Part shown: positions 40,771 through 62,712 of the stretch, piece by piece | Layout: every line of letters begins with the position of its first letter | Position numbering within the stretch: position 1 is the stretch's first letter | Source of the DNA: Kiritimatiellia bacterium | GTDB taxonomy: Bacteria > Verrucomicrobiota > Kiritimatiellia > RFP12 > UBA1067 | Reading direction: 5' to 3' | DNA length: 64,000 nt | Assembly (NCBI GenBank): GCA_017454745.1 | Contig: JAFTCL010000048.1 | Coordinates: 22,534-86,533 of the forward strand | Made by a program: the position numbers and the translations under genes | The notes under the pieces: generated by a model | Seen by the model: the letters and a program-made list of their open reading frames with translations, nothing else | The model's database searches: none | Told to the model about the DNA's origin: nothing

Positions 40771-40862
40771 CCTAACTCTCCTTATTGTAGTTTTGCGCGT
40801 TGCGCCGGATCGTGTCCTAAACAAAAAAGGGGTCCCGCCGTTATTGGCGAGACCCTTCAAAC

Positions 40863-42162: not shown

Positions 42163-42398
42163 CGCAATAACCTCAAATGCTGTTATTCAACACTCCTAGC
42201 TACACTCATGTGTACGGGAATAATTTACCCCATTAGCGGTGCAAACTGCAACCTTAAAATGATAAAAATGTGAAAAAAAATGTTCGATGAGTCTAAATTG
42301 CCATTTTTTACCCCAAATCGGTGAAATCGGGCGTGACTTTTGGGCGCAAATCTCACATAATATAAGAGTTCTTTCAGTTTATTAGGAGAAGTGTCCGA

Positions 42399-44258: not shown

Positions 44259-46043
44259 TTGGGCTTCGGGGTTGAAGGAGGTGCGTTTTTGGCTCCGAGG
44301 TCTTGGATAACCCCGGATTTTGACATAGCCGCCGCAGACCGGCTGGCGGCGGAGCTTGATTTGCCGAAGCCGCTGGCCGGAATATTGGTTAAACGGGAAA
44401 TATCCGACCCGGCGGCTGCCAGAAAATTCCTTAACCCCAATTTTCGCGATCTGGTGCCGCCGGACGCCTTGCCCGGTGTCAGCGATGCCGTCCGGTTGAT
44501 TTGGAACGGTATCCGTTCCAACGCACATTTCGTGGTGTTCGGCGATTTTGACACCGACGGGGTCTGTTCCACCGCCATTATGGTGCGGATTTTGCGGCTG
44601 CTCGGGGCCCGGGCGGACCATTTCCTGCCACAGCGCCAGACCGAAGGGTATGGTCTCACCCCGGCGGCGATCGGCCGTTGCCGTGCCGAATGCGGCGATC
44701 CCGATTTTTGGATTACCGTCGATTGCGGCATCACCGCCGTGGACGAGGTCGCGGCGTTGAAGAAACTCGGTTGCCGCGTGGTGTTGACCGACCACCACCA
44801 ACGTATCGAGCGGTTGCCGGAGCCGGACGCGCTGATCGACCCGACGTTGCCCGGAACCCCGGAGCCGTTGCGATATCTTTGCGGGGCGGGGGTGGCGTTC
44901 AAACTGGCGCAAGCCTTGGTTGAATATGGCCGCACCAATGGTTGGTATTCTGACAACAGAAGTATCGCCAAACGGATAATAGCCGAAGTGGCGGTAGCCA
45001 CCGTGGCGGACATCGTTCCGCTGGTGGGGGAAAACCGCATTATCGTCTCCAATGTCACCAATCGCTGGGGTTCCTTCCATACCAACGGGCTGGACCGGCT
45101 GCTTGCCCACCGGAACAAGGGTGGCGACCCCGATACCGAGACCTTCGGGTTTTTCGTCGGCCCGATGATTAACGCCGCCGGACGGATGGAGTCGGCGGAG
45201 ATTGCCTATCAACTGCTTTCCACCGACAATCCCGACCTTGCCCAACAGTTGGCGAGGAAGATGGCGGAGCTTAACCGCTGTCGCAAAGAGACCGAGGGCG
45301 AGATTTTTGACGCCGCCATGTGCGGTTGCGGTTTGGACGGTTACACGGAATCCCCGTCGGCCGCCGTGGTTGTCGCCCGGCACGGCTGGCACAAGGGCGT
45401 GATCGGGATTGTGGCGGCGCGGTTGTGCGAAAAATTCTGCCGCCCCGCCGCGGTGGCGGTGTTTGATACGCCTGATGAATCTAACGCGGTCGCTCGCGGT
45501 TCGGTCCGGGCGGGGGCAGGGTATAACGTGGTGGCGGCGCTGTCAGAAACCGCCGACCTGTTGAGCATGTTCGGTGGCCACGAAAGGGCGGGCGGTTTTA
45601 CGGTAAAACCCGGAAAATTCCCCGAATTCCGCCAGCGTTTTGAGGCCGTTTGCCGGGCGCAGCGCGCCGTTGCCAAGGTGGAGACCGAGTCATTGGTCGT
45701 GGACGGTATCCTAGCGCCAGACCGCTTGACGCTGGAATTTTACCGCGAACAACAGCGGCTCGCGCCGTTCGGTTTCGGCAACCCCAAACCGTGCTGGGCG
45801 GTCGCAAACGCGAGAATCGACCGGATCAACAAAATCGGTGCAGACGAAAAACACCTTTCGCTCACGGTTGCCGCCGGCAAACATAAGTTTCGCGCCGTCT
45901 GGTTCAACCGCGGCGAAGATGCGGATAAGTATCGCTGCGGCGATTTGGCGGATATCGCGTTTGAACTCGCGATAGACGATTACATGGGTGACCAGTCAAT
46001 CGAACTGCTGGTAAAAGACATCATTAGCCATACCGACAAATAG
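44259..46043 (+). CDS. recJ: Single-stranded-DNA-specific exonuclease RecJ
   Basis: DHH motifs (FGDFDTDGVCS, LTDHH) and DHHA1 (GGHERAGGF). The true start may be the TTG at ~44289 after a GGAGG RBS. Confidence 0.8.
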   Translation: MGFGVEGGAFLAPRSWITPDFDIAAADRLAAELDLPKPLAGILVKREISDPAAARKFLNPNFRDLVPPDALPGVSDAVRLIWNGIRSNAHFVVFGDFDTDGVCSTAIMVRILRLLGARADHFLPQRQTEGYGLTPAAIGRCRAECGDPDFWITVDCGITAVDEVAALKKLGCRVVLTDHHQRIERLPEPDALIDPTLPGTPEPLRYLCGAGVAFKLAQALVEYGRTNGWYSDNRSIAKRIIAEVAVATVADIVPLVGENRIIVSNVTNRWGSFHTNGLDRLLAHRNKGGDPDTETFGFFVGPMINAAGRMESAEIAYQLLSTDNPDLAQQLARKMAELNRCRKETEGEIFDAAMCGCGLDGYTESPSAAVVVARHGWHKGVIGIVAARLCEKFCRPAAVAVFDTPDESNAVARGSVRAGAGYNVVAALSETADLLSMFGGHERAGGFTVKPGKFPEFRQRFEAVCRAQRAVAKVETESLVVDGILAPDRLTLEFYREQQRLAPFGFGNPKPCWAVANARIDRINKIGADEKHLSLTVAAGKHKFRAVWFNRGEDADKYRCGDLADIAFELAIDDYMGDQSIELLVKDIISHTDK

Positions 46044-46051
46044 AGACGACC

Positions 46052-47356
46052 CTATCCGCGGGTTACCTGACTAATCACCGACTCCACGGTCATCGATTCG
46101 TCCGCCGCCCGCACAAAGCTGAACTTGAACGCCTCACCGCCCGGCGGCACGTCCAGCACCACGTGTTTCGGCTCGTACAGCGTTTCCGGGATATCTTTGA
46201 TCCAAGCTTTCCCGGCGTCTTCCTTCCGGCGTTCCTTGGTGAACACGCCCGGACATAGCAAACGCGGCTCCGGGTAAAGGTTGCGGTCCGCTAACCGCTC
46301 CATCGTGTCGGCGGTCATGTGCAGCTGATCCCACATGCAGGCGACGTAAACCTGTCCTTTTAGCGCTTTTACCAGTCCGGGGAACATCGAGTGGTGGCCG
46401 TGGTGATTGACCTTGACCACATTCGCCGTGCCGCAGGCTTCGGCCATCAGGTCCTCAATCTGCACCGCCGTCCCGTCCGCCTTTTTAATGCGGTCGGAAA
46501 AGTCCCCGGCGGTGTAGAAACGGAATTTTCCGTAGTTGAAGACCATCCCCAGCGACATTCCGTTTTCATTAAGTGCTTTCGGGTGGTTGCGCTCGATCAG
46601 GTCTTTGTACAAGTCTTTTATCGTGCCGTCCGGCAGCATGATTCTGCCATTGGCGCAAAGCGGACGGATACTGAACCCGTCGGTTTTTTCATGCAGCGGA
46701 TTCAGCTGGGCGGAACCTTTCTCCAACCGGAATTTTTCGACCTTTGATCCGCGCCGGATCATCTCTTGGTAAACTTCCTTGAGGTTGGCGCACATGTGGC
46801 TGTCGTCATTGTCCAGCTTGACGATCGGGTCGTCGTAGGTCGGGTACGCGCGGTCTATCGCCTTGCCGATATCCAGAAAGTCGATTGCCTGCCCCAACCC
46901 GGATTTGTAATATTTCCCGTTTTCCGACAGTCCCGCATGGTAGGAACGCGACCCTCCGTGGTCGGAGTGGTAGTGCGAGAGCATGAAGTAATCGACCTTG
47001 CGCCCGTTGGGGTTTACCCGGGTTACGTACCGGGAAATCCATTCGCCCGCGTGGCGCGACATATCCGGCAGGATCGGTATTTGCTTTTCCCCGCGCATGT
47101 GCGCCGGATGGTCCCCGACATCCAGCAGCAGCGTGGTGCCGTCGGGATAGATCATAAACATCGATTCCGCCACCCCGGTGTAAATGAAATGCACTTGGAA
47201 GTGGCCTTTTTCCCATCGTCCCAGCGGTTTGCCGACGGCGGGATCCGCCTCGCCCTCGGCGAATGCCTTCATGAAATCCGCCAATACTGCGGTTACTGTC
47301 GCTGCTACCGAATGTTTGACAAAAGCCCTGCGCCGCATAAATGCCTCCCTTTTCAT
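46052..47356 (-). CDS. Tat-secreted MBL-fold metallo-hydrolase
   Basis: Tat-like MRRRAFVKHSVAATV and the HxHxDH motif LSHYHSDHGG. Overlaps the upstream cdd by 4 nt, suggesting an operon. Confidence 0.6.
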   Translation of the reverse strand: MKREAFMRRRAFVKHSVAATVTAVLADFMKAFAEGEADPAVGKPLGRWEKGHFQVHFIYTGVAESMFMIYPDGTTLLLDVGDHPAHMRGEKQIPILPDMSRHAGEWISRYVTRVNPNGRKVDYFMLSHYHSDHGGSRSYHAGLSENGKYYKSGLGQAIDFLDIGKAIDRAYPTYDDPIVKLDNDDSHMCANLKEVYQEMIRRGSKVEKFRLEKGSAQLNPLHEKTDGFSIRPLCANGRIMLPDGTIKDLYKDLIERNHPKALNENGMSLGMVFNYGKFRFYTAGDFSDRIKKADGTAVQIEDLMAEACGTANVVKVNHHGHHSMFPGLVKALKGQVYVACMWDQLHMTADTMERLADRNLYPEPRLLCPGVFTKERRKEDAGKAWIKDIPETLYEPKHVVLDVPPGGEAFKFSFVRAADESMTVESVISQVTRG

Positions 47357-47787
47357 TTGTTTTTCTTGCTGTCCAAGCGAAAAGCCTTTGGCAGCAATTC
47401 ACCCAACGTGACTGCCGTCACTCGTCGTCCGGTCAGTCCCGCCACAAAAATTTGCAGTCCGTCTCTCACGAATTCCGCCATCACCTGCCGGCACGCGCCG
47501 CAGGGCATCGCTGGATCGCGCGAGGTTCCTCCGGTCACCGCGATCGCCGCCAGTTCGCGGCAGCCGGAGCTGACGGCCTTAAACATTGCGGTGCGTTCGG
47601 CGCACACCGTGAGTCCTGATGACGCGTTTTCCACGTTGCAGCCGGTGAAGATCTGTCCGTCGGATGTAAGCGCCGCCGCCCCCACGGGATACCCGGAGTA
47701 TGGACAGTAAGCTTGTCCCGCCGCTTCGCGGGCGGCTTTTATCAGCAAATCAACCACCTGTTTAGGGATAACCGGTTCTTGTCGCAT
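47353..47787 (-). CDS. cdd: Cytidine deaminase
   Basis: Zinc-binding motifs CAERTA and PCGACRQ. 144 aa. Confidence 0.8.
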   Translation of the reverse strand: MRQEPVIPKQVVDLLIKAAREAAGQAYCPYSGYPVGAAALTSDGQIFTGCNVENASSGLTVCAERTAMFKAVSSGCRELAAIAVTGGTSRDPAMPCGACRQVMAEFVRDGLQIFVAGLTGRRVTAVTLGELLPKAFRLDSKKNK

Positions 47788-47800
47788 CGCATTCCCTTTC

Positions 47801-50038
47801 TTAATTGTCCGTTTCCGTGAACTTCAGTTCCACAGCAACCGTCCGTGTTTCCGGCGTTTCCACTGTCACCGCATAAATCTCGCCGTACGATTCCGGTTTT
47901 CCCCGCAGAACTGCGCCCGGCACCTGTGTCACTCCCGCGCATGAAAATCCTTTTGGCACCGCGAACCGCAGGGCCAGCGGGAAACCGCCTACCGCCTCTA
48001 CCTCTGTTGTGAGCTTCCCGTTATCCCAACGGCTGTCTTTCAATTCCACCGCGCCTTGGGTGAGGTGGCGGTCGCTGGTGAGAAACTGCGGCCGCCCGGC
48101 ATCCGGTTGCAACGCCACCAGCCGCACTGAACGCGGCGGCACTTCCAGCTCCAGCCGCGACTGAAGACGTCCCAGCCATTTGCCTTCCCAAAACTCCCAG
48201 CCCAAAAAGTTCTTTTCCGGATCCTCTCCGATTTCGCCCCAGTCCACGCCTATCCGCTGTGGATGGTCACTCCAATTGAACAGTGCCGTCACGTGCCACG
48301 AGCCGAATTTGCGCCGCACCGCCAAATCCCATACCGGCAAATGTCCGAACCTTGGGCACAGCGCAACCGGGTGGATGTCGCAGACCGGCAGCGACTGTTG
48401 CAGCAGCCGGATGCGGTCGGGCGCGAGTTCGCCCAGCTTGTCGCCGGCGAACATCTGTTGGCCTGGCAGTGCCACGATTGTGGTTTCGACCCGCGCTTGT
48501 TCGATATCCAGCGCTTGCTGGCTGATCATCATACAGTCGGGATCGGACCAGAAGACCACGTTGTGGGCGAAGATCTGGTTGATGGTGCATCGCGCTTGCA
48601 GCAGAATGTTCGCCCATTTCACCGGCTGGTTGGGGTGGACGATATCCGCGCCGGTGCGGGAAGCGTCGGCGTATGCCGCTTCCGCCCCGGTGAAATGCCC
48701 CTGGCACGCCAGCAGGATCCGATCGGTGCCGATACCGTCGCGGAAGGCTTTAACGCACAGCTCAAAGGGGTTTGGGCATGACGGGTCGCTGAAACATTTG
48801 CGGATTTCCGGGCGTTCGTACAGGTGGGCGCAGTAACCCGGCCCGCGACCGCTCATGCCGTCGATTTTAAAGAACTCGTATCCCCAGTCGTGCGATGCCT
48901 TGTCGAAGATGCCCCGCAGATGTTCGCGCGCCGCCTTGACCGTCGGGTCGAGCGTGTATTTGCCGTTCCAGCAACCAACCGGGGAACCGTCGCCCCGGTG
49001 CAGGAACCAATCCCGGTGCGCCCGGTAAAACTCTTCGTTGCCGGTACCGAACGGCGCCACCCAAAGACCGGGGCGAAATCCGAGTTTCCTGATTTCGCCC
49101 GCCAGCCATTTCATGCCCTCTGGGAACTGTTCCGGATGGTGTTCGAGATTCATGTTGTGGAACTTCGAGACCGGCAATTCGCTGGAATTGGCCTGCCAGG
49201 ACTCGATTGACCAGATTTCCAGCCCGAACGGTTTTAGGAACTTCGCGCCCAACCGCGCCTCGGCAAGGTTTTCCTTTGAGCCAGCTTTGTCGAAGTAGGT
49301 GTTCCAGCTCATCCAGCCGGTTGGCGGGCGCGGGGCGCGGGAACGGTCGATCGGCCTGTAGTACGGTACCCAGCGGTTTTTGTAGTAATCCCGTTCCAGC
49401 GCGATGGTAAACTCCGCCTTCGCCGCGTCGTCAATACGCCCCTCGAATCCGAAGTCCCAGCCGCCGCCGGGATGTGCGGACAACGTTAGCTTTGCGGCAT
49501 CCAACCGCAACGCGCAGTCGTTTTCCGGGGAAAACAGCGTGTCGTTCAACAGCGAGTCGGCATCGCCCGCCGCCAATTGCAACACCCGTCCGCCCGGCGA
49601 TCTGGTGCGGGCGGCAAAGGCGTCTGGGAAAAATTTCGCCGTTCCTTGAAACGACAGCGTTCCGGGGTAGGCAAGCGCGGTACGGTGATATACTAACAGC
49701 CGGAGCCGCCCGCCGTCGGGTTGAAATGTCACGTACCCCTGTGCGTCGCCGTTGGGGTCGATTAACGCCAGCCGTTGCCTCGCTCCGTCGCGTGGATCTT
49801 CAATCCGCCATTTGCGGTCGGCCGGAACCTCGTGCCCAATGGTTTCGGAAGCGTTGGCCTTGGCCGGGCCTAAAAACGACAGCGTCCCGGAAAGTTCGGT
49901 TCCGGTGGCGGGGTGGGAGAGTTTGAGGGATTCGGACGATGGCGAAAAATCCACCCGCCATTCGCCGGCGTCAAAAACGGTGTCACCGTTGACGGTCGCA
50001 GCGATCATCAATAGCGTAAAAAAAAACGTTCCGCGCAT
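47801..50038 (-). CDS. Secreted alpha-galactosidase-like glycoside hydrolase (clan GH-D; GH36-like)
   Basis: Signal peptide. Candidate nucleophile region GYEFFKIDG (KxD) and GFRPGLWVAPFGT, equivalent to GLW.EPE in GH36. Confidence 0.5.
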   Translation of the reverse strand: MRGTFFFTLLMIAATVNGDTVFDAGEWRVDFSPSSESLKLSHPATGTELSGTLSFLGPAKANASETIGHEVPADRKWRIEDPRDGARQRLALIDPNGDAQGYVTFQPDGGRLRLLVYHRTALAYPGTLSFQGTAKFFPDAFAARTRSPGGRVLQLAAGDADSLLNDTLFSPENDCALRLDAAKLTLSAHPGGGWDFGFEGRIDDAAKAEFTIALERDYYKNRWVPYYRPIDRSRAPRPPTGWMSWNTYFDKAGSKENLAEARLGAKFLKPFGLEIWSIESWQANSSELPVSKFHNMNLEHHPEQFPEGMKWLAGEIRKLGFRPGLWVAPFGTGNEEFYRAHRDWFLHRGDGSPVGCWNGKYTLDPTVKAAREHLRGIFDKASHDWGYEFFKIDGMSGRGPGYCAHLYERPEIRKCFSDPSCPNPFELCVKAFRDGIGTDRILLACQGHFTGAEAAYADASRTGADIVHPNQPVKWANILLQARCTINQIFAHNVVFWSDPDCMMISQQALDIEQARVETTIVALPGQQMFAGDKLGELAPDRIRLLQQSLPVCDIHPVALCPRFGHLPVWDLAVRRKFGSWHVTALFNWSDHPQRIGVDWGEIGEDPEKNFLGWEFWEGKWLGRLQSRLELEVPPRSVRLVALQPDAGRPQFLTSDRHLTQGAVELKDSRWDNGKLTTEVEAVGGFPLALRFAVPKGFSCAGVTQVPGAVLRGKPESYGEIYAVTVETPETRTVAVELKFTETDN

Positions 50039-50061
50039 TTCTGCCTCTCCATTATTATAGG

Positions 50062-50451
50062 TTAATCCATCGCGCCCGCCTTAGGATCGGGGCCGAAACG
50101 GTTAGCTCCGAGAGTGCCTTCGCGGATCAGTAGGAGGAGGCATAGCCAGATTGGTCCGATAATCGGAATCAGGAAAATAAAAAACCACCAACCACTTTTG
50201 TCGCAGTCATGCAACCGGCGTACTGTCACCGCGAGTCTAGGCAAAAGCACCGCCAACGAGTAGAATGTGGACAAAGATCCGATAGCGGTAGGAAGAATAG
50301 ATCCCCGCAAGCGGTGGGACACAAAACCGATAGCCACAATGATAATAAAATCAAACAGTGTGAAACCCCAATATTCTTTGCGGCGGGCCCGGCCGCTGAA
50401 ATCCAAATACTTTGTCGTGACTGCTTGTACAAAAAAATCAAACAGATTCAT
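50062..50451 (-). CDS. DUF805-family inner-membrane protein
   Basis: GRARRKEYWGFTLF...RRLHDCDKSGWW...G.NRFGPDP matches the DUF805 pattern. Confidence 0.6.
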   Translation of the reverse strand: MNLFDFFVQAVTTKYLDFSGRARRKEYWGFTLFDFIIIVAIGFVSHRLRGSILPTAIGSLSTFYSLAVLLPRLAVTVRRLHDCDKSGWWFFIFLIPIIGPIWLCLLLLIREGTLGANRFGPDPKAGAMD

Positions 50452-50597
50452 TTACGACCTCCTGGTTTCCCCCGTCATATCCCGGCGCGCCAAGCGCCAC
50501 AACCATCAAAACTGCGAATATGGTACAATTTACCGCGAAAACAAGCAAGGCGAAATTTTGAACAACGAATAAGGTCGAAATCGCCCCGAAGGCGGGG

Positions 50598-50626
50598 TTG
50601 ACAACATGTTACTCCTTTGCTAAAAT
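50598..50626 (+). promoter_or_regulatory. Putative sigma70 promoter: TTGACA, 17-nt spacer, TAAAAT
   Basis: Consensus -35 at the optimal spacing to a good -10. Lies in an AT-rich region ~120 nt upstream of the giant gene ATG. Confidence 0.5.
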
Positions 50627-50744
50627 TTTAACAGTTTTTTGTTAAGTGGTTTTGTGTCTTTTTGTGTTTATTCGTCGCAAATGAGAGTGCGCTGACGGTT
50701 AAACGATAAATGACAAAAAACATGGGAAGGGAAAAAGATGGGAG

Positions 50745-53700
50745 TTGTCTATGACTGACTTGAAATGTTTGAGCGGCGCGGTGGCGCTTTTCGCGCTTAC
50801 GCTTGGCGCGGTGGAACTTGAGACCGCCGGTGAGCTGCTGGTGGATCTCGACGCATCGACGCTGTCGGGATATTCGGAAGGTGACGGTGTTAGGGTGTGG
50901 CCCAATGCGGGCAGTCAGGCCGACTTCGTCTATGTTGACACCCACAGCAAGAATACTCCCCCGACCTACCGCCTCCGCAACGGTGCGCCGGCTCTGCGCT
51001 TCCTCGGCTCCGCATCGGGCAGCATGACGAACAACGTGCCCATGCCCGATTCGCTCACGGGCAACAGCGCCTGGACGGTTGAAGGATGGATCGCGCCCAC
51101 GCAAGAGAGAACGGATTTCCGCTACTTCCTGAGCATGCCGTATTATAAGGAAGGCACTTCCTCCACGCCCGAAGCCTACAAGCGCTGGGCGTTCCGCATG
51201 GACATGAAGACCGACCTCTATGCCGTGGAGCACAACTCATATCAGCTCTACTGGGGCCGTCGCAGTCCGGAGAATGCGATTTACCGCCCCGAGGTCGGGA
51301 AGTGGCACCACATCTGCGTTGTGCACGAGGCATCGGGCTACGAGCGCGTCTATGTGAACGGCCGTGTCGCCTCGGTGGGAAACACCGCGCTCAACCTCTC
51401 AAACGCGGATCCGAGCTTTTTCATCATCTCCGGCATCTACCGCCAGTCGACCGGCGCATGGGAGCGCCAGAACTATGCCGACTACGGACGCATCCGCATC
51501 CAGACCGGGGCGCTCATGACCGCGCAGGTGATCAGCAACTACAATGCCGAGAAGGAGCATTACGGCGTGACCGACGTGCCGGACACGCTCTGGACCGACG
51601 GCGCCACCTGGTACAACGGCAAGGCGCTCGCGCTTGACGACAATCTCATCATCGAGGGAGACCAGCCGCTTGTGATCGACAACGGCGCGAGCAACGCCGT
51701 GCACTTCATCACGGTGAACGCGGCGAAGAACACGGGGCTCACGATCGACAACGGCAGCATGCTCACGGTCGCCTACGGCAACGACCTTGTCCAGCTCGGC
51801 AACGTCGCCGGCGGCACGTTCTCGCTTCTGGTTCCGAACGGAACATTCGCCACCCCGAACAATTCGATCACGCTCGGCCTCTACAACAGCGGCGTGGGCG
51901 TGATTGGCGGCCGCGAGGACGCCTTGGGCATCGTCAACTGCGGCAGCTCCCTGCGCGTGGGGCACTATCCCGGCGGTTCGGGCGAATTCACCATCAAGAC
52001 GAACGGCATCGTGAACATTGCAAGCACCATCCGCATTGCCGACGGCAATGATGCCGAGGGTCATATAACGGTGGAGGAGGGCGGCGAGCTCACGGTTCTG
52101 GGCGACACGTACATCTGCTCCGGCACCGGGACGGGCGTTCTCGACGTGTACGGCACGTTCACCCACGGCACGGCCGACACCACGCCGACCTGCTACATTG
52201 CGGGCAGTGCGACCGGCGTCGGCACGCTTAACTTCCATCCCGGCTCCGTCGCCAACATCCAGATCTTCCGCAGCACCTCCGGCTCCACCACGAGCACGGT
52301 CAACATCGACGGCGCGACCTTGCGCACAATGCGCGGGCGCACATCGATCGTCGAGCCGCCCGTCATATTCAACATCAAGAACACGGTGACGTTCGACATC
52401 CCCGCGGGCATGAACGGCACGATCCGCACCACGGTCAACGACCTGACGGAGAACGGCGCGGCCACCATTGTCAAGACTGGCGGCGGCATTTTGTTCCTTA
52501 CGCCAAACGACGGTCAGACGCCAAGCGACATCTCCTCGACGTTCATCGTAAGGGAGGGCCAAGTCACGATCGGCAACGCAAACGCGCTCGCCGCCAGCTC
52601 CACGGCCACCTTCAAGCTCGAGGGCGGCACGGTGAGCGCCGACTACGTAGGCGGCGCGGCGGCGCTTCTCGCGCGCATCGACAAGTCGTCCGTGGGCAAC
52701 TTCATGCTCCACGGCAACAACGTGGCGGAGAATCTCGACTTCTCCGAGTATCCCGGTCTCACCATCATCCCCAATGGTACCTTCACGTACACGGGAACGA
52801 TAACGCCTTACCAGAACAAGTACATCTTCCGCCCCACTAATGGTCTCATGGTCTATGCCGGCAACATCTCCGACAAGGACGGGTTCCCCGCGTCAGTCGA
52901 AATCTACGGCGCGACAGATACGGACGGCGTGACGCTTTCCGGCCTTAACGACGGCATGAGCGGCAACATCAGCGTGTACAAGGGCATCCTCGGCATCTCC
53001 GGCTCGTCGTATGCGGCGGGTAACCCAGACTTGACGAAACTCTATTTCGCGGAAGGCACCTCCTTCAAGCTTGACGCGCTTGTGGGCTCGACCTTCTTCA
53101 CTTCGCGGATTGCCGAAGGCTCTAAGCCGGCGGCGATTCTGCTCACCGACAACTCCGCGAACTGCAGCGTCGATCTTTCCCGTTTCCCCGGCTGTCGCCT
53201 GGGTACCGACAAGACCGGTTCGGTCATGATTCAGACGGGCTCGATTTTCCCGAACGCCGACAATGTCTTCCTGCTTGGTGGCGGTGCCGTGCCGTATTAC
53301 CAGACGAGCCATCCGGGCTTCCAGCCCTCAGTTATGTCGGACAACTCCGCCGGCGCGGCTCGCGTTGAGGTGGGGACGGTCGGTATCGTCAACCTTTCGA
53401 ATGCGGCAAACACCTATTCCGGCGGCACGTCGATTCTCGACGGCGGCACCGTCTTCGTGACGGCGGACGGATTCGGCGCCATCCCGGCGGAATTCGATGA
53501 GGACAACATCTACATCAACGGCGGTATCCTCCGCAACGGCAACACCGTTTTCTCCCTTGCCCCGACGCGCGGCGTTAAAATCGGTCCGGACGGCGCGATA
53601 CTCCATCCTTGGGGTACCTACTCAATTGAAATCCCCGGCGGCTTGACCGGCGCCGGACCGGTCCAGATCACCGACGGCGGCTTTATCATTCTGTCGGGCG

Positions 53701-56000
53701 CCAACAACACCTTCCAGGGTCCGGTGACGGTAACCCAGGCCAATCAGGTGTTGACGATCGGCGGCGACGAGAACTTCTCGTGGGCTTCGACGGACGGCAT
53801 CTCCACTCCCGGCAAGGTGGTCCTCAAGAACTCGGATGACGATACGTTCAACGATGTCGTTTCCGGAACTGGCAGCCTAGAGAAGCAGGGTGAAGGGCGT
53901 ATGACGCTCACTAAATCCCAGTCCTATTCGGGCGCGACCTCCGTCGAAGCCGGAACGCTCGTTTTCGCTGACGGTGTTAATCTGGCTAATACTTCAACCT
54001 TCCGCAACAACGGGGAGGTCTTCCTCGATTCGTTCGACATACTGGGTACCGGAGCTATTTCCGGTTCCGGGCGTTTCGTTGTCTCCGGCACGACCGATCT
54101 CGACGCGGCCCGCCTTGTCGGAAATCCGGACTTTGAGATCTTGGACGGTGCCTCGCTGGGCATTGATATGCCGGCCTTCAGCGAGAAGACTGAAGTGCGT
54201 CTCGATGACGGATCGAGCGTGACGCTCGGTAGCGGCATTGTAAACCAGGTAAACGGATTCGACCAGTTCTTGTTCAACGGCAGCGCGGTGCTTTCCGAAG
54301 GCAATCTGAAGCTGACACCGTATGCGACAGCCAATGTTGGCTCGGCGTTCTATTCCCGGCGCGTGCGCGTGACAGATCCTTGGGAGGCGACCTTCTCCTA
54401 TCAGGCGGGAGAACATGACGCTTGGACGACGGATCTGCTCGGCGCCGCGCTCGTCCTACAGAACGAAGTGGCGGGACCAAACGCGATTGGCAACGCATCG
54501 TCGGGTTCGACTTTGGGGTGCGCCTTTACCAAGTCCATCGGTATCATCATGCGTGTCGGCGTCGAATCCGATACCCGTGACCGTTACGGCTTCAGCAATG
54601 CCGGCACGATCTCGGACACCACCTCTTCGCGCTCCAACGCTATCGCGGCCGATGGCGGCAACGTGATCAAGATTACCGTGAGCTATGACGGCGCGGTCCT
54701 TAGTGCGTCGTGGGATTGCAACGGTACCGTTCGCCCGACAAGTGGCCCGATGACATGGACGGTTGACCTAAAGTCGATTCTCGGCAGCGAATACGCGTGG
54801 ATCGGCTTCACGGGTACCACGGGCGCTTCGACCGGATGCGAGCAGACGATCAGCGGCTTCTCGTTCCGCAGCATCTCGGATGGCGCAAGCATTCCCGGCA
54901 TCGGCGAAACGGGCTGGACGCATACGAAATACGCGCCGACCTACACGACGGTCGACGACAAGCCGGCGTTCCAGTTAACGCCGTATGCGGAATCCACCCG
55001 GAGTGCGACTTGGAACTCGACGCGCGTATATGTGAACCGTCCTTTCCGTGCGACATTCAAGTATCGCGTGACCCAGCACACTGCCTCCCCGGCGGACGGC
55101 ATGGCGATTGTTCTCCAGAACTTCTCGTCCAACGCTGCGGACTGCTACGGTCAGACGGGTGGAAAACTCGGCATCGTCTATAACGATGGTTCCGATCGCA
55201 CGAAGACGGCGGGCTGGGGTATCAACCTCTACCCGAGCCAAAACGACCAGTGCTTCAAGTATGTGTTGGACGGCCTCTTCTCCGGCGATACCGTTCCCCT
55301 TACGGCATGGGATCTCGCTGACGGCGAAGATACCGAATTCACGCTGTCGTATGATTTGCGCGAGCTGACGCTGACGGCGACCCGTGGCAATTCCTACGTT
55401 TCCGCTTCGCGCGAAGTCAATTTGGCGTCGGTAATGGGTGACAACACGGCGTGGATCGGCTTCACGGGTGCTACGGGCGGATCGTATGCCTGCCAGATTG
55501 TGTACGATTTCTCGTTCGCCTACGAGGAGATGGATATCTCGCGTTATGCCAACCCGTTCGTGGTTGATGGTGCGGTACAGATGAATCTCGGCATGGGCAC
55601 GGTAGGTTTCTCCGATTTGATCCTGCAAGATGGCGCAAATCTCTCAATCGGTTCGGCGTCCGCCCCGGCGGTTGAACTGGCCGGTACGACGCTTTCGGGC
55701 GGAGCGACGGTCTCGTCGGTCGCCGCTGTGCCGATCATTCTCGGGGACACGATTTCGTTCGATTCTTCCACCGGCGTTCTCAAGCTGGTGGGCGATGTGC
55801 GCGCGAACGGCAAGGTGAAACTGGAACTCTCGTCCTTCAATGGTACGCGCAACCTCATCGATCTTACTGAGGCGACAACGTCGCTTACGGCAGACGATTT
55901 TGAGGTGACGGGTGAGGTTCCCCCGCTGTTGCATCTCGACATCAAGGACGGAATGGTCCGCATCTGGCGCGATGTTTCGACGATTATGATTCTCCGCTAA
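50745..56000 (+). CDS. Giant secreted lectin-like surface protein: N-terminal LamG-like domain, a long autotransporter-associated beta-strand (PATR) repeat region, and two L-type (legume-like) lectin domains
   Basis: Signal-like N-terminus. PATR units such as GTGSLEKQGEGRMTLTKSQSYSGATSVEAGTLVF. Two lectin domains marked by AWIGFTGTTG / AWIGFTGATG and ATFSYQ / ATFKYR. 1751 aa. Confidence 0.7.
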   Translation: MSMTDLKCLSGAVALFALTLGAVELETAGELLVDLDASTLSGYSEGDGVRVWPNAGSQADFVYVDTHSKNTPPTYRLRNGAPALRFLGSASGSMTNNVPMPDSLTGNSAWTVEGWIAPTQERTDFRYFLSMPYYKEGTSSTPEAYKRWAFRMDMKTDLYAVEHNSYQLYWGRRSPENAIYRPEVGKWHHICVVHEASGYERVYVNGRVASVGNTALNLSNADPSFFIISGIYRQSTGAWERQNYADYGRIRIQTGALMTAQVISNYNAEKEHYGVTDVPDTLWTDGATWYNGKALALDDNLIIEGDQPLVIDNGASNAVHFITVNAAKNTGLTIDNGSMLTVAYGNDLVQLGNVAGGTFSLLVPNGTFATPNNSITLGLYNSGVGVIGGREDALGIVNCGSSLRVGHYPGGSGEFTIKTNGIVNIASTIRIADGNDAEGHITVEEGGELTVLGDTYICSGTGTGVLDVYGTFTHGTADTTPTCYIAGSATGVGTLNFHPGSVANIQIFRSTSGSTTSTVNIDGATLRTMRGRTSIVEPPVIFNIKNTVTFDIPAGMNGTIRTTVNDLTENGAATIVKTGGGILFLTPNDGQTPSDISSTFIVREGQVTIGNANALAASSTATFKLEGGTVSADYVGGAAALLARIDKSSVGNFMLHGNNVAENLDFSEYPGLTIIPNGTFTYTGTITPYQNKYIFRPTNGLMVYAGNISDKDGFPASVEIYGATDTDGVTLSGLNDGMSGNISVYKGILGISGSSYAAGNPDLTKLYFAEGTSFKLDALVGSTFFTSRIAEGSKPAAILLTDNSANCSVDLSRFPGCRLGTDKTGSVMIQTGSIFPNADNVFLLGGGAVPYYQTSHPGFQPSVMSDNSAGAARVEVGTVGIVNLSNAANTYSGGTSILDGGTVFVTADGFGAIPAEFDEDNIYINGGILRNGNTVFSLAPTRGVKIGPDGAILHPWGTYSIEIPGGLTGAGPVQITDGGFIILSGANNTFQGPVTVTQANQVLTIGGDENFSWASTDGISTPGKVVLKNSDDDTFNDVVSGTGSLEKQGEGRMTLTKSQSYSGATSVEAGTLVFADGVNLANTSTFRNNGEVFLDSFDILGTGAISGSGRFVVSGTTDLDAARLVGNPDFEILDGASLGIDMPAFSEKTEVRLDDGSSVTLGSGIVNQVNGFDQFLFNGSAVLSEGNLKLTPYATANVGSAFYSRRVRVTDPWEATFSYQAGEHDAWTTDLLGAALVLQNEVAGPNAIGNASSGSTLGCAFTKSIGIIMRVGVESDTRDRYGFSNAGTISDTTSSRSNAIAADGGNVIKITVSYDGAVLSASWDCNGTVRPTSGPMTWTVDLKSILGSEYAWIGFTGTTGASTGCEQTISGFSFRSISDGASIPGIGETGWTHTKYAPTYTTVDDKPAFQLTPYAESTRSATWNSTRVYVNRPFRATFKYRVTQHTASPADGMAIVLQNFSSNAADCYGQTGGKLGIVYNDGSDRTKTAGWGINLYPSQNDQCFKYVLDGLFSGDTVPLTAWDLADGEDTEFTLSYDLRELTLTATRGNSYVSASREVNLASVMGDNTAWIGFTGATGGSYACQIVYDFSFAYEEMDISRYANPFVVDGAVQMNLGMGTVGFSDLILQDGANLSIGSASAPAVELAGTTLSGGATVSSVAAVPIILGDTISFDSSTGVLKLVGDVRANGKVKLELSSFNGTRNLIDLTEATTSLTADDFEVTGEVPPLLHLDIKDGMVRIWRDVSTIMILR

Positions 56001-56020
56001 AGAGTGGACGGCTTGCAAGT

Positions 56021-56047
56021 CGGGCGGGGCTTTTTTGGCCCCGCCCG
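56021..56047. terminator. Rho-independent terminator-like hairpin, GGGCGGGGC-TTTTTT-GGCCCCGCCC, just downstream of the giant gene
   Basis: Perfect 9-bp GC stem with a T-rich loop/tail, 21 nt after the stop codon. Confidence 0.55.
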
Positions 56048-56279
56048 TTTGTCTTAAGGATAACACTGACGCCGCGATCAGCATTTGTGATGGTACTGGA
56101 CCAGATGGAAAGTAGATACAATGGCGGAGATACATACGGCCGGCTTCGGCGATGTTTTGCTTCGCCCGCGCCTCCTATTATCGGGATTGGTGGGCTGTTG
56201 CCATTATCTGATCTGCTGGAACCGGTTTCCGTAGCAACCCGCCCCGTAAGGATTAAGCGTGGGAATGGGATCGCATAGG

Positions 56280-58715
56280 ATGAACAACGTTTATCTGGCC
56301 ATCTTGTTTTCAACCGTTGCGACGCTCCGGGTTACGTCGGCGGTGATGGTTGACGTATGGGGCGCCGAGGACGGGCTCCCCCATAACACGATCACCTGTC
56401 TGAAACAAACCCAAGACGGGTATCTATGGATCGGAACCAACCACGGCGCCGCCCGTTTTGACGGCATCCGCTTCACCCTCTTCGGCGCGCAGAACACGCC
56501 CGAATTGAGAAGCAACCGGATTGTCGCCTTTGAGGAGCTGGTTCAAGGCGGCAAGTCGGAGCTTTGGTTGGGTACGGACGGCGGCGGCGTCATGCGGCTC
56601 ATGGGCGGGCCGCACATGTCGATCACCAGTTGGGAGGGCCTTCCTGACGATACGATCGAATCGTTGGGGACGGACACCCAAGGACATCTGCTGATTGTCA
56701 CGGCAAAGGGATCCGTCATCTTGGATAACGGTCGGATCAGGCCCGTCACGGTGCCCCTCGGTCCGACAGACGCACAGACGGGAGACATCCCCCATGTGAC
56801 CGATCACCGGATACTCTGCACGCTGAAGGACACGGACGGGGTTTTATGGGTCGGGACCGAAGGCGGGGGATTGCTTCGGATTCGGCCTCGCCTGCTGGAT
56901 CCCGATTCCCGGCCGGACACAAAGGCGCTTCCGTCCTTTGATTTTCCCTCCGGTTTCCCTGAAAAGAGTGAAGTGACCGCATTCTGCCGCGATGCGGAAA
57001 ATAGGCTCTGGATCGGGACGCGCAACCGGGGCGTTTTCCTCCAAGAAGGGGGAACCATTCAAAACTTCGGGCCAAACGAGGGTTTCCCCGCGCGGATGGT
57101 TTCCGCGATCGTCCAGGATCGGGATGGCGATATTTGGGTAGGCTCCGACGGCATGGGACTCTATCAATTCGCGAACGGGCGGGTCTCCTATTATTGCCGC
57201 CGCGAGGGCTGGGGCAGCGAATGGATTCGTTCGCTCTTCATCGATTCCGACGGTGCGCTCTGGATCGGGAGCGGCGGGAATGGCCTGACGCGGATGCGGG
57301 ACGGCTGGTTCCACACCATCACCAAGCGGGAAGGGTTGAATGACGATATCGTCTCACAGATCCTGGAGGATGATTTCGGCAACATCTGGATCGGGACCAA
57401 TTCGGGATTGGCGGCCTTTTCGAAGCGGGATTTTGACCTGTTCGCGCAAGGAATGAAAAAGACGGTTCCGATAACCACGTATGGCCGCTGCGACGGCATG
57501 CCCGCCCTTGAATGCTGCGAAGACATAAAGATGCCGGCGGTCAAAGATCAAAACGGGCGGCTCTTCTTTGCGACCATTGCGGGGTATGTCTGTGTGGATC
57601 CCCATCAGCTGCGCGGGGCGATCAACAAAACCGCCTCGTTCAACACGATGATCGAAGAGGTCGAACTGGACGGGAAACGGATCCCCTCCCCGATTCGGGA
57701 CGTGGTCCTTGTGCCACCCGAAACGGGAGCGGTCTCCTTCCGATGGACGGGTTGCAATCCGGGGTATGCCGACAAGGTCCGTTTCCGGTACCGGCTGAAC
57801 GGATATGACCGCGAATGGATTGAGCAGAACACGCTGCGCTCCATACGGTATGTCAACCTCCCTCCCGGAAAATACACATTTGAAGTGGCGGCCTGTAATC
57901 CTGCGGGCATCTGGTGTCCGCGTCCCGCCATGATTCACCTGACGGTCAAGCCGCATCTTTGGCAGACGTTGGGATTCCGCATTGTTTTCCTCCTGTCGCT
58001 CGTTTCCGGCGGCGCGGCGTTGGCCTGGTGGTTTGTGCGGCGGCGGACGAAGGCCAAGATCGAACTCTTCAAACACCGCCATCTTCTGCTCGCCGAACGG
58101 GCCAGAATCGCCAGCGACATCCACGATGATATCGGGGCGCGTCTGACCCGGATCGCGCTTTTGGGTTCCCTTGCGGAGCGGGAACTGCCCGCCACCATTC
58201 CCGCTTCAACCAAGAATCGGCTCGCCGAGATGACCGTGGCCGTGCGGGAAGTGACCAACGCACTTGAAGAGGTGGTTTGGGCCGTTGAGCCGCGCAATGA
58301 CACCCTCGACAAGCTCGCGACCTATCTTTGCAGTTACTCGGAGCGTTTTTTAGAAGGAACCCACGTTCGTCTGCGGCTGCGGATCCCGACGCTCTTGCCC
58401 GCAGTCACGCTCTCCAGCTCATTGCGCCATGATGTGGTCCTGTCGGTCAATGAGGCGTTGAATAATGTGGTGCGGCACGCCAACGCCTCAACGATCATCC
58501 TCTATCTCACATGCGACGATCTCTTCTGCACCATCAAGGTGGAGGATGACGGATGCGGCATCACCGCAGTCCGTGAACATGGAAACGGGTTAAAGAACAT
58601 GGCTGAGAGGATGAGCCGGCAACATGGCTCAATTCGGTGTTCACAGCGGGAGGGACACGGTACCGTGATCGAGCTTTGTTTCCCCATCAAGCCGGGAGAT
58701 GGCAATGACAGATGA
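56280..58715 (+). CDS. Sensor histidine kinase with a periplasmic two-component-regulator beta-propeller, a Y_Y_Y domain, one transmembrane helix, and cytoplasmic HisKA_3 + HATPase_c domains
   Basis: Reg_prop repeats (DGYLWIGTNHG, GVLWVGTEGGGL, RLWIGTRNRGV, DIWVGSDGMGL, ALWIGSGGNGL, NIWIGTNSGL). Transmembrane segment IVFLLSLVSGGAALAWWFV. HisKA_3 box ERARIASDIHDDIGARLTRI. ATPase G-boxes. Confidence 0.8.
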   Translation: MNNVYLAILFSTVATLRVTSAVMVDVWGAEDGLPHNTITCLKQTQDGYLWIGTNHGAARFDGIRFTLFGAQNTPELRSNRIVAFEELVQGGKSELWLGTDGGGVMRLMGGPHMSITSWEGLPDDTIESLGTDTQGHLLIVTAKGSVILDNGRIRPVTVPLGPTDAQTGDIPHVTDHRILCTLKDTDGVLWVGTEGGGLLRIRPRLLDPDSRPDTKALPSFDFPSGFPEKSEVTAFCRDAENRLWIGTRNRGVFLQEGGTIQNFGPNEGFPARMVSAIVQDRDGDIWVGSDGMGLYQFANGRVSYYCRREGWGSEWIRSLFIDSDGALWIGSGGNGLTRMRDGWFHTITKREGLNDDIVSQILEDDFGNIWIGTNSGLAAFSKRDFDLFAQGMKKTVPITTYGRCDGMPALECCEDIKMPAVKDQNGRLFFATIAGYVCVDPHQLRGAINKTASFNTMIEEVELDGKRIPSPIRDVVLVPPETGAVSFRWTGCNPGYADKVRFRYRLNGYDREWIEQNTLRSIRYVNLPPGKYTFEVAACNPAGIWCPRPAMIHLTVKPHLWQTLGFRIVFLLSLVSGGAALAWWFVRRRTKAKIELFKHRHLLLAERARIASDIHDDIGARLTRIALLGSLAERELPATIPASTKNRLAEMTVAVREVTNALEEVVWAVEPRNDTLDKLATYLCSYSERFLEGTHVRLRLRIPTLLPAVTLSSSLRHDVVLSVNEALNNVVRHANASTIILYLTCDDLFCTIKVEDDGCGITAVREHGNGLKNMAERMSRQHGSIRCSQREGHGTVIELCFPIKPGDGNDR

Positions 58716-59349
58716 GGTGATTAAAGTCGCTTTGGTCGAGGACGATCTGGGTATCCGCGAGACCCTTGCGGAGCTGCTTGAGGTTTCGGAGGGATTTTCC
58801 TTTTGCGGTTCCTTCGCGGACGGCGAATCCGCTTTGGAGCAGATACCGAAACTGAACGCGGACATCGTGCTGGTGGATATCAACCTGCCGGGCATATCCG
58901 GCATCGATGTCATCATGACGCTTCATGCGGAGTGCCCGGGTCTCCAGTTCCTTGTCCTGACGGTCTATGAGGATAGCGACCGGATTTTCCGCGCCCTCGC
59001 CGCCGGGGCCGGCGGATACCTGCTCAAGCGCGAGGCGCCCAGTAAGTTGCTGGAATCGATCACGGACATCAAGCACGGCGGTGCGCCCATGTCGGCGTCG
59101 ATCGCGCGCCAGGTTGTCCAGTCGTTCCACAAGATGGGAACGGTCAAGGAGCCGTCGGAGAACCTCTCGTCGCGGGAAGAGGAGATTTTGAAGATGCTGG
59201 TGGAGGGGGACCTCTATAAGGAAATCGCGGACAAACTCGGCATCCATCTGGAAACGGTTAAAACGTACATCAAGCGGATCTATGCGAAACTGCATGTCCG
59301 TTCGCGGACCGAGGCGGTCGTGAAACGGTTGCGGCGGGAAAACGATTGA
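58699..59349 (+). CDS. Response regulator of the NarL/FixJ family (REC + LuxR-type HTH)
   Basis: Receiver residues VEDD and VLVDINLPG. C-terminal HTH: LSSREEEILKMLVEGDLYKEIADKLGIHLETVKTYIKRIY. Overlaps the kinase gene by ~17 nt. Confidence 0.8.
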   Translation: MAMTDEVIKVALVEDDLGIRETLAELLEVSEGFSFCGSFADGESALEQIPKLNADIVLVDINLPGISGIDVIMTLHAECPGLQFLVLTVYEDSDRIFRALAAGAGGYLLKREAPSKLLESITDIKHGGAPMSASIARQVVQSFHKMGTVKEPSENLSSREEEILKMLVEGDLYKEIADKLGIHLETVKTYIKRIYAKLHVRSRTEAVVKRLRREND

Positions 59350-60333: not shown

Positions 60334-62712
60334 CTAGAACGGATTGGTCGGGGCGATCTCCCACATGTCGAGCCGCGCGCAGACGGCGGACTCGCCCTTC
60401 GCCCCCAAGCGGATGTTCCGACCCTCTTTCCGCGGGTAACTGCGGCGGCAGATCGCCTGCCGGTCATTGGCGAACACCTCAATAACACTACGGTCCACAT
60501 AGACGCGCAGGGTCAGGGTCTCGCCCGGCCGCAGCCGGAACGGCGCCCGCTCGACAAGGGCGTGGGGCGTGATCATCCCGGATGACGCGGTCCCGCCCTG
60601 GCTTCCATCCAGAACAAGATGCCCCGTCTCCGCGTCGTAATGGATGACCGTCTTTTCGCTGCCGTCATCCGAGGCCAGAACCGACAGGACGAAACGGGGG
60701 GCGTTCTCCGGATCGAACGTCAGCTGGATCTCGCAATCATCCCCGGGAAGACCGGCAAACGGCTGACCCGTCTCTTCCGCAAGCCGGAGGCTCTCCACGG
60801 CCTTGTGGTTCCGGCGCAACCGTTTCAACTCCTCGACGGGGGCGATGCCGAGCGTCCCGTCATCCGCCAGCCAAAGCGATCGCGGCAGGCCGTAGACACC
60901 CGACCACCCGTATGTGATGTGGTCATTCTCAAGATTGTCGATCAGCCAGGCCCAAATGATCTGGCGGCCCTGTCCGTCCATCAGGCACTCCGGCGCGAAG
61001 TAGGTGTTGTCCTCCCACGTCATTCTGCCGTGACTTTCGGGATAGAAGCGGTCATCCGCATACCGCCCGATATAGTATTGGCAGCCCCGGTTGTGGCTGA
61101 TGCTGACCAGCAGGTGTTTGTCGCTTAAGGCGCCGCCGTCGGCACTGCGCGGCAACGGCAGGAAACTCGGACACATGTTGTCCTCATCGGGATCGGTCCA
61201 GCCGGACGCGCGCGTCTCATCGGTTCTGCGCTGGTAGAAGGGATGCTTGTAAACCCAGCTCTTCAGGTCCGCCGACTCGAAGAGGTAGACGCAGTCGCCC
61301 TTCATCGCCTCGGGCGAATCCGCCGCCCGTCCGTTGTCATTCAGCAAGGGTAGGTTTCCGGCGACCATGTAATACTTGCCGTTCTTTTTCCAGATGTTCG
61401 ACGGGTCCGCGCTGGCGTACTTCACCTCGTTCCCATCCGCGTCCTTCGCCAGGGTCCATCCCCACCGTGTGCTTTTGATGACGGGGTTTTCCGCGAATTT
61501 CTCCCAGCGGTCAAAGCGGGAATCAAGACTCTTGGCGATGCCGAGCCCCTTCGCGCCCCAGAGCATCCAGTAGGTGAGATAGGCGGTGCCGTCATCATCA
61601 ACAAAACCGCCGCCGCTGAAGACCCCGCTGTCATTCGGCCCGACACGAAGCGCGTCGGGATGGTGCCGCCAATGGAGCAGGTCCGCGCTGGAGACATGTC
61701 CCCAGCAGAAGCCGGAATGGGCGCGCGCGTAAAGATACATCAGATGATACCGCCCGTTGTGCCAGAAGCAGCCGTTGGGGTCACCCGGCTTCCCGTTCCC
61801 CTCTGGAACGCAGAAGTGGTAGAGCGGCCGGTAGGGATCCGCCAACAGCTTTTCACGCAGCCGGCGGGTGGTCGCCAGCACGGTATCGGGCACATCCCCC
61901 CGTCCGTTCCACGGTGACGCCGGAACCGTCGTCGCCCCGCCCTCTTCCTCGATGGACAGCGTCGAATCGGCAAGGGAGACCAGAAAGGTGTCGCCCTCGT
62001 CCATCAGGGTCAAAGCGCCGTCGGCCACCTTGGCGTTGCCGATCAGACGGCTCGCGCGGAAACGGCCCATCCGCTCAAATGTGCCCGTCGTACAGAACGG
62101 CCACCAGGCCCAAAGCGGCAACTCCCCCGCGACACCGGGCTTGAGTTTGCGCAGGGCGGCGCCGTCGAGCGCCGAGTCGTAAATCCGCGCGTCGCTAATC
62201 CGCCCTTTAAAGCTGACGCCGTCTTTCGCCCCGCGATGCCGTTTACCGAAGAGCACAAGGGTCTCGTTTCCGAAACGGACGGGATCAACCGTTGCGGTGT
62301 ACCGAGTCAGCTGTTCGCCATTGCGGTAGATGGTAATCTCACGGCCTTTATAACTGATCGCTAATTGGATGAACCGGTCAGCGGCGACGCTCTCTTCTGG
62401 GGCCCCATCCTGTTCGCGGCGGGTCCGTTTGTAATAATCGCTTCCCGCCATCCAAACCTTTTCTTTGAGTTCGCCCAAAACGATCGCGTCAAAGACCCCC
62501 TTGGCCGATTCCATGGTCAGGCAGGAGCCGCCCTGTTGCGTCAAATCCGCGGGGGAGACCCACGCCACAAGCGTCTTATCCACGATACTCTCGTTTTCGC
62601 TTGGAATCGGCTTTTGCCCGCCGTTTAACGTCACCGTGGTTTGGGCGACCGCTTGTCCCGCGCAACAGGCGCACCCGATAAGAACCATGTATCCCGCTCG
62701 AAACGTCATCAT
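60334..62712 (-). CDS. Secreted GH32 beta-fructofuranosidase / levanase-like hydrolase with an N-terminal LamG-like domain
   Basis: Signal peptide. A LamG-like ~200-aa N-terminal domain. The GH32 motifs are GDPNGCFWHNGRYHLMYLY (the NDPNG equivalent), WGHVSSADLLHW, FSGG, and YFAPEC (the EC catalytic motif). Confidence 0.75.
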   Translation of the reverse strand: MMTFRAGYMVLIGCACCAGQAVAQTTVTLNGGQKPIPSENESIVDKTLVAWVSPADLTQQGGSCLTMESAKGVFDAIVLGELKEKVWMAGSDYYKRTRREQDGAPEESVAADRFIQLAISYKGREITIYRNGEQLTRYTATVDPVRFGNETLVLFGKRHRGAKDGVSFKGRISDARIYDSALDGAALRKLKPGVAGELPLWAWWPFCTTGTFERMGRFRASRLIGNAKVADGALTLMDEGDTFLVSLADSTLSIEEEGGATTVPASPWNGRGDVPDTVLATTRRLREKLLADPYRPLYHFCVPEGNGKPGDPNGCFWHNGRYHLMYLYARAHSGFCWGHVSSADLLHWRHHPDALRVGPNDSGVFSGGGFVDDDGTAYLTYWMLWGAKGLGIAKSLDSRFDRWEKFAENPVIKSTRWGWTLAKDADGNEVKYASADPSNIWKKNGKYYMVAGNLPLLNDNGRAADSPEAMKGDCVYLFESADLKSWVYKHPFYQRRTDETRASGWTDPDEDNMCPSFLPLPRSADGGALSDKHLLVSISHNRGCQYYIGRYADDRFYPESHGRMTWEDNTYFAPECLMDGQGRQIIWAWLIDNLENDHITYGWSGVYGLPRSLWLADDGTLGIAPVEELKRLRRNHKAVESLRLAEETGQPFAGLPGDDCEIQLTFDPENAPRFVLSVLASDDGSEKTVIHYDAETGHLVLDGSQGGTASSGMITPHALVERAPFRLRPGETLTLRVYVDRSVIEVFANDRQAICRRSYPRKEGRNIRLGAKGESAVCARLDMWEIAPTNPF

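Follow-up and report, generated by a model that had tools for sequence, protein, structure and literature searches.

What kind of protein is encoded by the long forward-strand open frame at positions 50745-56000 of the 64,000-nucleotide stretch of Kiritimatiellia DNA analysed here (contig JAFTCL010000048.1; the whole stretch is referred to as the window), and what might it do for the bacterium? The gene is real and stand-alone, and it encodes a 1749-residue secreted fibre protein. The reading favoured here, with a probability of about 0.55, is that of a Sec-exported, fibre-like surface protein or adhesin of about 185 kDa from gut or rumen Kiritimatiellae, transcribed alone and equipped with putative ConA-like binding modules. 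From the N- to the C-terminus, the protein would comprise a LamG head, a beta-helix stalk of about 860 residues with three autotransporter-associated beta-strand repeat (PATR) matches, two L-type lectin folds, and a 154-residue beta domain with a short tail. An apparently remodelled metal site in the lectin domains, an unannotated C-terminal module and a probable recombinant N-terminal cassette are points that go beyond the sequence-only reading of this DNA which the analysis followed up.

Gene and protein identity

Counted from TTG 50745, the open frame holds 1751 codons, the length that the sequence-only reading had given to the protein. The frame is indeed present, but the true start is almost certainly ATG 50751, giving 1749 amino acids (aa), since the ribosome-binding site GGGAG at 50740-50744 lies 6 nt before this ATG and directly against the TTG, and since the 1749-aa NCBI record and seven of the seven full-length homologues begin at the position of ATG 50751. 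The product is 100% identical to MBQ9431714.1, recorded as 'MAG: autotransporter-associated beta strand repeat-containing protein [Kiritimatiellae bacterium]' (MAG, metagenome-assembled genome); the giant lectin protein is already in the databases under a generic PATR name, and it represents an uncommon version of a well-known protein type. The gene and the parts of its product are located as follows.

50751..56000, +, coding sequence, stop codon included, 1749 aa, identical to NCBI MBQ9431714.1
50751..50828, +, probable Sec signal peptide, residues 1-26, likely cleavage after LETA, predicted from the sequence
50868..52850, +, variable, probably recombinant cassette, residues 40-700: LamG head and first half of the beta-helix
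51027..51428, +, LamG / ConA-like domain (Pfam Laminin_G_3, PF13385), residues 93-226, Pfam expectation value (E) 4.4e-10
51618..54200, +, stalk formed by a right-handed parallel beta-helix of about 25 rungs, residues about 290-1150
53877..53963, +, best PATR repeat, residues 1043-1071, one of three PATR-matching stretches
54255..54875, +, L-type lectin-fold domain 1, residues 1169-1375, Pfam Lectin_legB E 4e-20
54942..55499, +, L-type lectin-fold domain 2, residues 1398-1583, Pfam Lectin_L-type_dom E 1e-24
55536..55997, +, family-specific all-beta C-terminal domain, residues 1596-1749, predicted local distance difference test score (pLDDT) about 90
55965..55997, +, conserved tail WRDVSTIMILR, from alignments: [GS]-T, four hydrophobic residues, R

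Two lectin folds with an apparently remodelled metal site

The two legume-lectin-like domains with the motifs AWIGFTGTTG and AWIGFTGATG, as proposed from the letters alone, were recovered at residues 1349-1358 and about 1566-1575, respectively, and PF18483 (88 bits against a cut-off of 78.3) and PF00139 (72.8 bits against 26.3) each match two stretches above the gathering score. By sequence, the lectin regions match phytohaemagglutinins (PHA; E 1.2e-9); the best solved relative of the domain 1 profile is the legume-lectin domain 7elv of Methanocaldococcus jannaschii (E 5.8e-5), and the domain 2 profile leads to PHA-E (E 1.5e-5). The AlphaFold model of residues 1100-1749 has a pLDDT of 82.9, and Foldseek matches it to pea lectin (E 5e-11, template modelling score (TM) 0.74) and to 7elv (TM 0.78), a match that holds for the two-domain model as a whole and not domain by domain. 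Alignment to the L-type lectin fold, fixed beforehand as the test on which the earlier reading could fail, was found for both regions by sequence and for the model by structure.

The accompanying check for Ca/Mn ligands was largely negative, the Glu and the His of the Mn2+ site being missing in both domains. The metal loop, VEFDTLYN..D..H in the alignments with PHA and 7elv, reads IGIIMRVGVESDTRDRY in domain 1 and AGWGINLYPSQNDQCFKY in domain 2, and the shared metal-binding Asp is replaced by a conserved Asn in the family (12 members aligned). The two domains differ in their sugar-binding elements: domain 2 contains PADGMAI and GGKLG, so that the sugar-binding Asp and the loop-B Gly are kept, and PADG and GGxLG are retained in domain 2 of the window protein and its three nearest relatives; domain 1 has LLGAAL instead of PADG, with no sugar-binding Asp, and PADG is lost from this domain throughout the window's clade, in contrast to a more distant clade (P0035, P0036, P0040, P0048), where PADG occurs in both lectin domains. 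On these residues, the canonical site of domain 1 appears degenerate, and domain 2 may bind sugar through a remodelled, at most Ca2+-only, site; canonical legume-lectin sugar binding is doubtful even there, because domain 2 lacks the Glu and His and because no clear counterpart of the sugar-loop Asn emerges from the alignments.

Signal peptide, LamG head and beta-helix stalk

Residues 1-26 are probably a Sec signal peptide, with a hydrophobic core at residues 6-21 and an A-x-x-[TK]-A|G motif kept in all seven of seven homologues. The LamG domain named in the sequence-only reading is matched by its profile above the gathering score (40.3 bits against a cut-off of 27.6); residues 1-280 have a pLDDT below 50 in the AlphaFold model, and a PDB sequence search with the LamG head gave no solved relative. 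The model of residues 1-1150 has a mean pLDDT of 70.5 and shows about 75 short strands in residues 290-1140, equivalent to about 25 rungs of a beta-helix; the pLDDT there is mostly 75-95, and the helix is closest to autotransporter passengers. PATR is matched in Pfam with E 1.5e-7, above the gathering score, in contrast to the number of repeats, which had been put at about 20: PF12951 or TIGR02601 matches three stretches only, even at E<=10, inside this beta-helix of about 25 rungs.

The C-terminal domain and its tail

No family match to the 154-aa C-terminal domain was found in Pfam, NCBIfam or the PDB. A profile of the domain finds 24 clusters at E<=1e-3 among 1.84 billion representative proteins, the match lying at the extreme C-terminus in nearly all of the 24 proteins, most of which terminate in [GS]-T, four hydrophobic residues and then R or K; in the model, the tail block has a pLDDT of 54 and no secondary structure. 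Five large members (1721-1952 aa) contain PATR and/or L-type lectin matches in Pfam, together with LamG (three of five) and DUF2341 (two of five), and domain profiles place two tandem lectin-fold domains in all five. This C-terminal module would be an envelope-anchoring or sorting element, a role suggested by analogy because other beta-strand-repeat or lectin proteins carry PEP-CTERM-like tails at the same place. It is proposed, tentatively and at rather long odds, that the beta domain and tail constitute an undescribed surface sorting or anchoring module of the Kiritimatiellae, serving a small family of giant adhesins in which the N-terminal cassette is swapped. If so, the module would correspond in function to PEP-CTERM, the type IX secretion system (T9SS) C-terminal domain or the autotransporter barrel; strain-to-strain recombination of the cassette of LamG and stalk would alter specificity; and the presence of such a tail on giant LamG proteins outside the family would mark a wider set of substrates.

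Such tails occur in two proteins. One is a second giant secreted protein in the window (19297-24021, +; 1574 aa), which contains Flg_new_2 repeats as well as three Laminin_G_3 stretches; its last residues, ...SPGTIITIL, form a short hydrophobic tail like STIMILR. The other, a DUF2341 and LamG giant at a homologous locus, L003 (4856-9766), terminates in ...AGLTIMMR. That the C-terminal module is shared with these other giant LamG proteins was considered and set aside as an unproven hint, the 154-aa profile giving no match to them; a 45-aa tail profile gave a marginal E of 0.05 for the L003 protein and no match to the 1574-aa protein of the window.

A probable recombinant N-terminal cassette

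The conservation of the gene changes abruptly along its length. Compared with UBA1200 (locus L001), the closest genome, codons 1-700 are 72-80% identical at the nucleotide level and codons 700-1749 are 91-97% identical, and the genes flanking the lectin fibre gene are mostly 95-97% identical (DUF805, 90%). Synonymous divergence (dS) is 0.65-0.76 in residues 40-700 against 0.14-0.18 in the rest of the gene, and the ratio of non-synonymous to synonymous divergence (dN/dS) is 0.28-0.31 against 0.13-0.21. The higher dS of the N-terminal segment implies a much older common ancestor and therefore points to recombination over mere faster evolution. Homologue identities form a mosaic that crosses lineages: residues 90-450 are nearer to P0003 (75-95%) than to P0002 (54-87%), the overall nearest relative, whereas in residues 700-1749 the order is reversed (P0002, 93-98%; P0003, 54-78%). 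Taken together, these data point to the LamG head and the proximal stalk as an exchangeable cassette imported by recombination, as would suit the exposed end of a fibre anchored at its C-terminus, where specificity would be determined.

Surface fibre or another function

How could such a protein work? As a surface fibre, it would be held at the outer membrane by the conserved C-terminal module, and the stalk would project the binding modules outward from the cell. Domain 2 may bind a glycan, whether dietary, host or microbial, perhaps together with the LamG head, because the Asp-Gly elements are kept and an Asn stands at the shared metal-binding Asp; domain 1, with its canonical site lost, would serve as a spacer or bind in a non-canonical way. 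Exchange among strains would affect the LamG head and the first half of the stalk, as expected for the exposed specificity end of an adhesin. Surface location, adhesin function and glycan binding are all predictions made from sequence, and several observations weigh against them: the LamG head is badly modelled; in 12 of 12 family members, both lectin domains lack the Glu and His that would ligate Mn2+; the Asn of the sugar-binding loop has no clear alignment position in the lectin domains; the Asp of domain 2 is changed to Tyr in the homologues P0005-P0007; and no known outer-membrane translocation or anchoring module was found in the Pfam and NCBIfam scans of the protein.

Some of these observations would suit a self-associating or cell-to-cell aggregation fibre of the Ag43 kind, in which the lectin folds would be structural or engaged in protein-protein contacts, with no sugar binding. 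The loss of the canonical metal ligands in both lectin domains, and of the sugar-binding Asp in domain 1 and, for three homologues, in domain 2 as well, agrees with such a role, as do the tandem paralogues in the genome RUG14841 and the top, though weak, Foldseek match of the stalk, which is Ag43 (E 5e-3); nevertheless, the retention of PADG and GG-x-LG, in domain 2 in this clade and in both domains in the distant one, suggests a maintained site, and an aggregation fibre is considered rather unlikely. A secreted or surface carbohydrate-active enzyme (CAZyme), with a catalytic pectate-lyase-like or glycosidase beta-helix and with the LamG and lectin domains as carbohydrate-binding modules, would be in keeping with the GH106, LamG and GH32, and melibiase-like proteins encoded in the window. 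It is an improbable explanation, however, given that the Pfam and NCBIfam scans give the protein no catalytic family, that PATR repeats are typical of passenger stalks, and that the stalk of about 860 residues far exceeds in length the matched catalytic beta-helices, whose chains have about 370-730 residues. Both the enzyme and the aggregation fibre have less support than the surface fibre.

The NCBI name suggests a classical substrate of type V secretion, that is, an autotransporter or a two-partner secretion (TPS) exoprotein. The hallmarks of a classical autotransporter passenger, a beta-helix with PATR and a Sec signal, are both found, the latter as a prediction; PATR / TIGR02601 repeats are present, the beta-helix is nearest to autotransporter passengers, and there are weak partial matches to the models of the autotransporters ShdA and fusolisin. 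Against this, the Pfam and NCBIfam scans of the protein gave no match to the C-terminal autotransporter beta-barrel (PF03797), and the Pfam scan gave none to the N-terminal TPS domain (PF05860). An autotransporter barrel domain has roughly 250-300 residues, and the 154-aa C-terminal domain is shorter than that. Moreover, the annotation of the flanks read at four homologous loci contains no TpsB-like or BamA-like gene, and none emerged among the neighbours in the window, of which only the larger open frames were scanned with Pfam. A type V substrate is thus largely refuted by the missing defining domains, and it is regarded as very improbable.

Promoter, leader and terminator

The signals around the gene are consistent with a separate transcription unit.

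50598..50626, +, sigma-70-type promoter-like site: TTGACA, 17-nt spacer, TAAAAT, with TG preceding the -10 hexamer
50627..50750, +, leader of about 120 nt, AT-rich (36% guanine-cytosine (GC)), with the GGGAG ribosome-binding site
56021..56056, +, GC hairpin resembling an intrinsic terminator, then a broken T-run, from fold and sequence

The AT-rich region claimed upstream of the gene is there, the intergenic spacer having 43.5% GC against 60.3% for the window, and so is the promoter: TTGACA-17-TAAAAT is the sole 11/12 match on both strands of the 64-kb window, where block shuffles average 0.18, although the scoring supposes a Kiritimatiellae consensus like that of E. coli. The closest genome, UBA1200, has TTGACA-17-TAAACT at the same place. 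High expression of the lectin fibre gene from this near-consensus promoter, as the sequence-only reading had supposed, is plausible. A regulatory RNA in the leader was considered and rejected, Rfam matching none in the whole window and the fold not being significant (z -1.5).

Downstream, the hairpin described as clean was only partly borne out: the stem at 56021-56047 is strong (11 bp, 10 GC pairs, -31.5 kcal/mol, z -3.5), whereas the U-tract on its 3' side is broken up (GUUUGUCUU), so that the terminator is good but, because of this interruption, short of textbook quality. Both elements of a single-gene unit, a sigma-70 promoter and a GC hairpin, are therefore found as predicted sequence features. 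The unit is monocistronic by geometry, as had been proposed, because the upstream gene, DUF805, is divergent and because the hairpin and a gap of about 210 nt separate the gene from the next one downstream; collinearity with the closest genome, moreover, stops right after the hairpin.

Distribution and neighbourhood

The architecture had been called uncommon, and the searches agree. Among 5.8 billion proteins, seven full-length clusters (45-100% identity) and a few fragments were found, and relatives occur in 4 of 185,579 species-representative genomes (UBA1200, UBA1211, RUG14841 and one further MAG), a scan made with two peptide patterns only, by which distant members can be missed; the 24 clusters of the C-terminal domain are similarly few. 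Members with organism-named protein records are Kiritimatiellae, and the UBA genomes are titled Verrucomicrobia bacterium. The rumen MAG RUG14841 has at least three copies, two of them tandem paralogues (L004, 3-4316 and 4431-9878) and the third on another contig (L006), which indicates a local expansion of the family in that genome; its upstream tandem copy shares 59% identity with residues 314-1749 of the window protein.

At the five loci compared, the neighbourhoods are unrelated, except for a giant protein directly upstream in two of them, and housekeeping genes make up most of the neighbours read around the homologues, where no partner gene is conserved. In L003, the spacer between the two giant genes (9775-9835) contains imperfect CCACGAA-like heptamer repeats (cacgaaccacgagccacgaaccacgaatcacgaataacgaaccacgaaccacgaatc). 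The divergent neighbour in the window (50062-50451, -) encodes a small membrane protein of the DUF805 family, and its conservation is below that of the other flanks. Collinearity with UBA1200 extends over 40740-56055 at 92.8% nucleotide identity and ends just past the hairpin, the UBA1200 locus continuing from its position 15307. Beyond 56055, the window encodes a Reg_prop/Y_Y_Y histidine kinase (56259-58715), a LuxR-type response regulator (58699-59349) and, also downstream of the hairpin, a LamG-GH32 protein (60334-62712, -), none of which is present in the approximately 10 kb read on the downstream side of the UBA1200 homologue; for this reason, 56055 is taken as a rearrangement or insertion boundary. 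A functional link between the lectin fibre gene and these three genes was considered and rejected, because collinearity ends at the terminator and no homologue has them.

CAZymes are also encoded elsewhere in the window, namely a GH106 alpha-L-rhamnosidase (33727-37299, -; E 1e-186) and a weak melibiase-like protein of 745 aa (47801-50038, -), in addition to the LamG and GH32 protein; such a CAZyme-rich window fits a glycan-degrading lifestyle of the host organism.

Significance

Kiritimatiellae, most of them uncultured, are abundant in guts, rumen and sediments, where they degrade glycans; their substrate attachment and surface display are poorly known, and a search of one literature library returned nothing relevant on Kiritimatiellae lectins or surface proteins, nor on the archaeal lectin 7elv. 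The family described here offers a candidate surface fibre for glycan binding, in which prokaryotic legume-lectin domains have a remodelled metal site, together with a candidate lineage-specific C-terminal anchoring module, and the exchange of its distal N-terminal third between strains points to the part that would be under ecological selection. No general principle is altered; the result is a useful upgrade of the annotation of a protein labelled 'autotransporter-associated beta strand repeat-containing protein'.

Comparison with known systems

The passengers of autotransporter and TPS adhesins (Vag8, UpaB, Hap, Ag43, EtpA) resemble the window protein in the predicted Sec signal, the long right-handed beta-helix and PATR; they differ in that the window protein has neither a beta-barrel translocator nor a TPS domain, and instead combines an origin in the Planctomycetes-Verrucomicrobia-Chlamydiae (PVC) group with a LamG head, two lectin domains and another C-terminal module. 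The PEP-CTERM proteins P0008, P0009, P0026 and P0032 likewise join PATR or L-type lectin domains to a C-terminal sorting element, whereas the window protein carries the 154-aa beta domain and an 8-residue tail in place of PEP-CTERM; PF07589 gave no match, and the C-terminus (...IWRDVSTIMILR) has no PEP motif, transmembrane helix or Arg cluster. Membership of the type V, TPS or PEP-CTERM classes was therefore rejected, because the defining modules are absent.

With legume lectins (PHA, pea lectin and 7elv; PF00139 / PF18483), the window domains share the common fold (TM 0.74-0.78) and the PADG, GGxLG and AWIGFTGxTG signatures; they differ from them in the missing Glu and His of the Mn2+ site, the change of the shared Asp to Asn and, in domain 1, the missing sugar-binding Asp, and 7elv, unlike the window lectin domains, retains the complete VEVDT..N..D..DH loop. 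Legume lectins are also free-standing proteins of about 250 aa, whereas the window domains lie in tandem inside a fibre of 1749 aa. Llp1 and Llp2, two L-type lectin adhesins on the surface of Lactobacillus rhamnosus GG, bind mannan or mannose and promote adhesion (PMC4990349), and they likewise combine a bacterial L-type lectin domain with a C-terminal envelope-anchoring domain, for which the window protein has a candidate; in contrast, they are Gram-positive and much smaller, with a single N-terminal lectin domain, a WxL anchor and neither a beta-helix nor LamG. In summary, the nearest characterised analogues are the autotransporter and TPS passengers for the stalk, and Llp1 and Llp2 as lectin adhesins.

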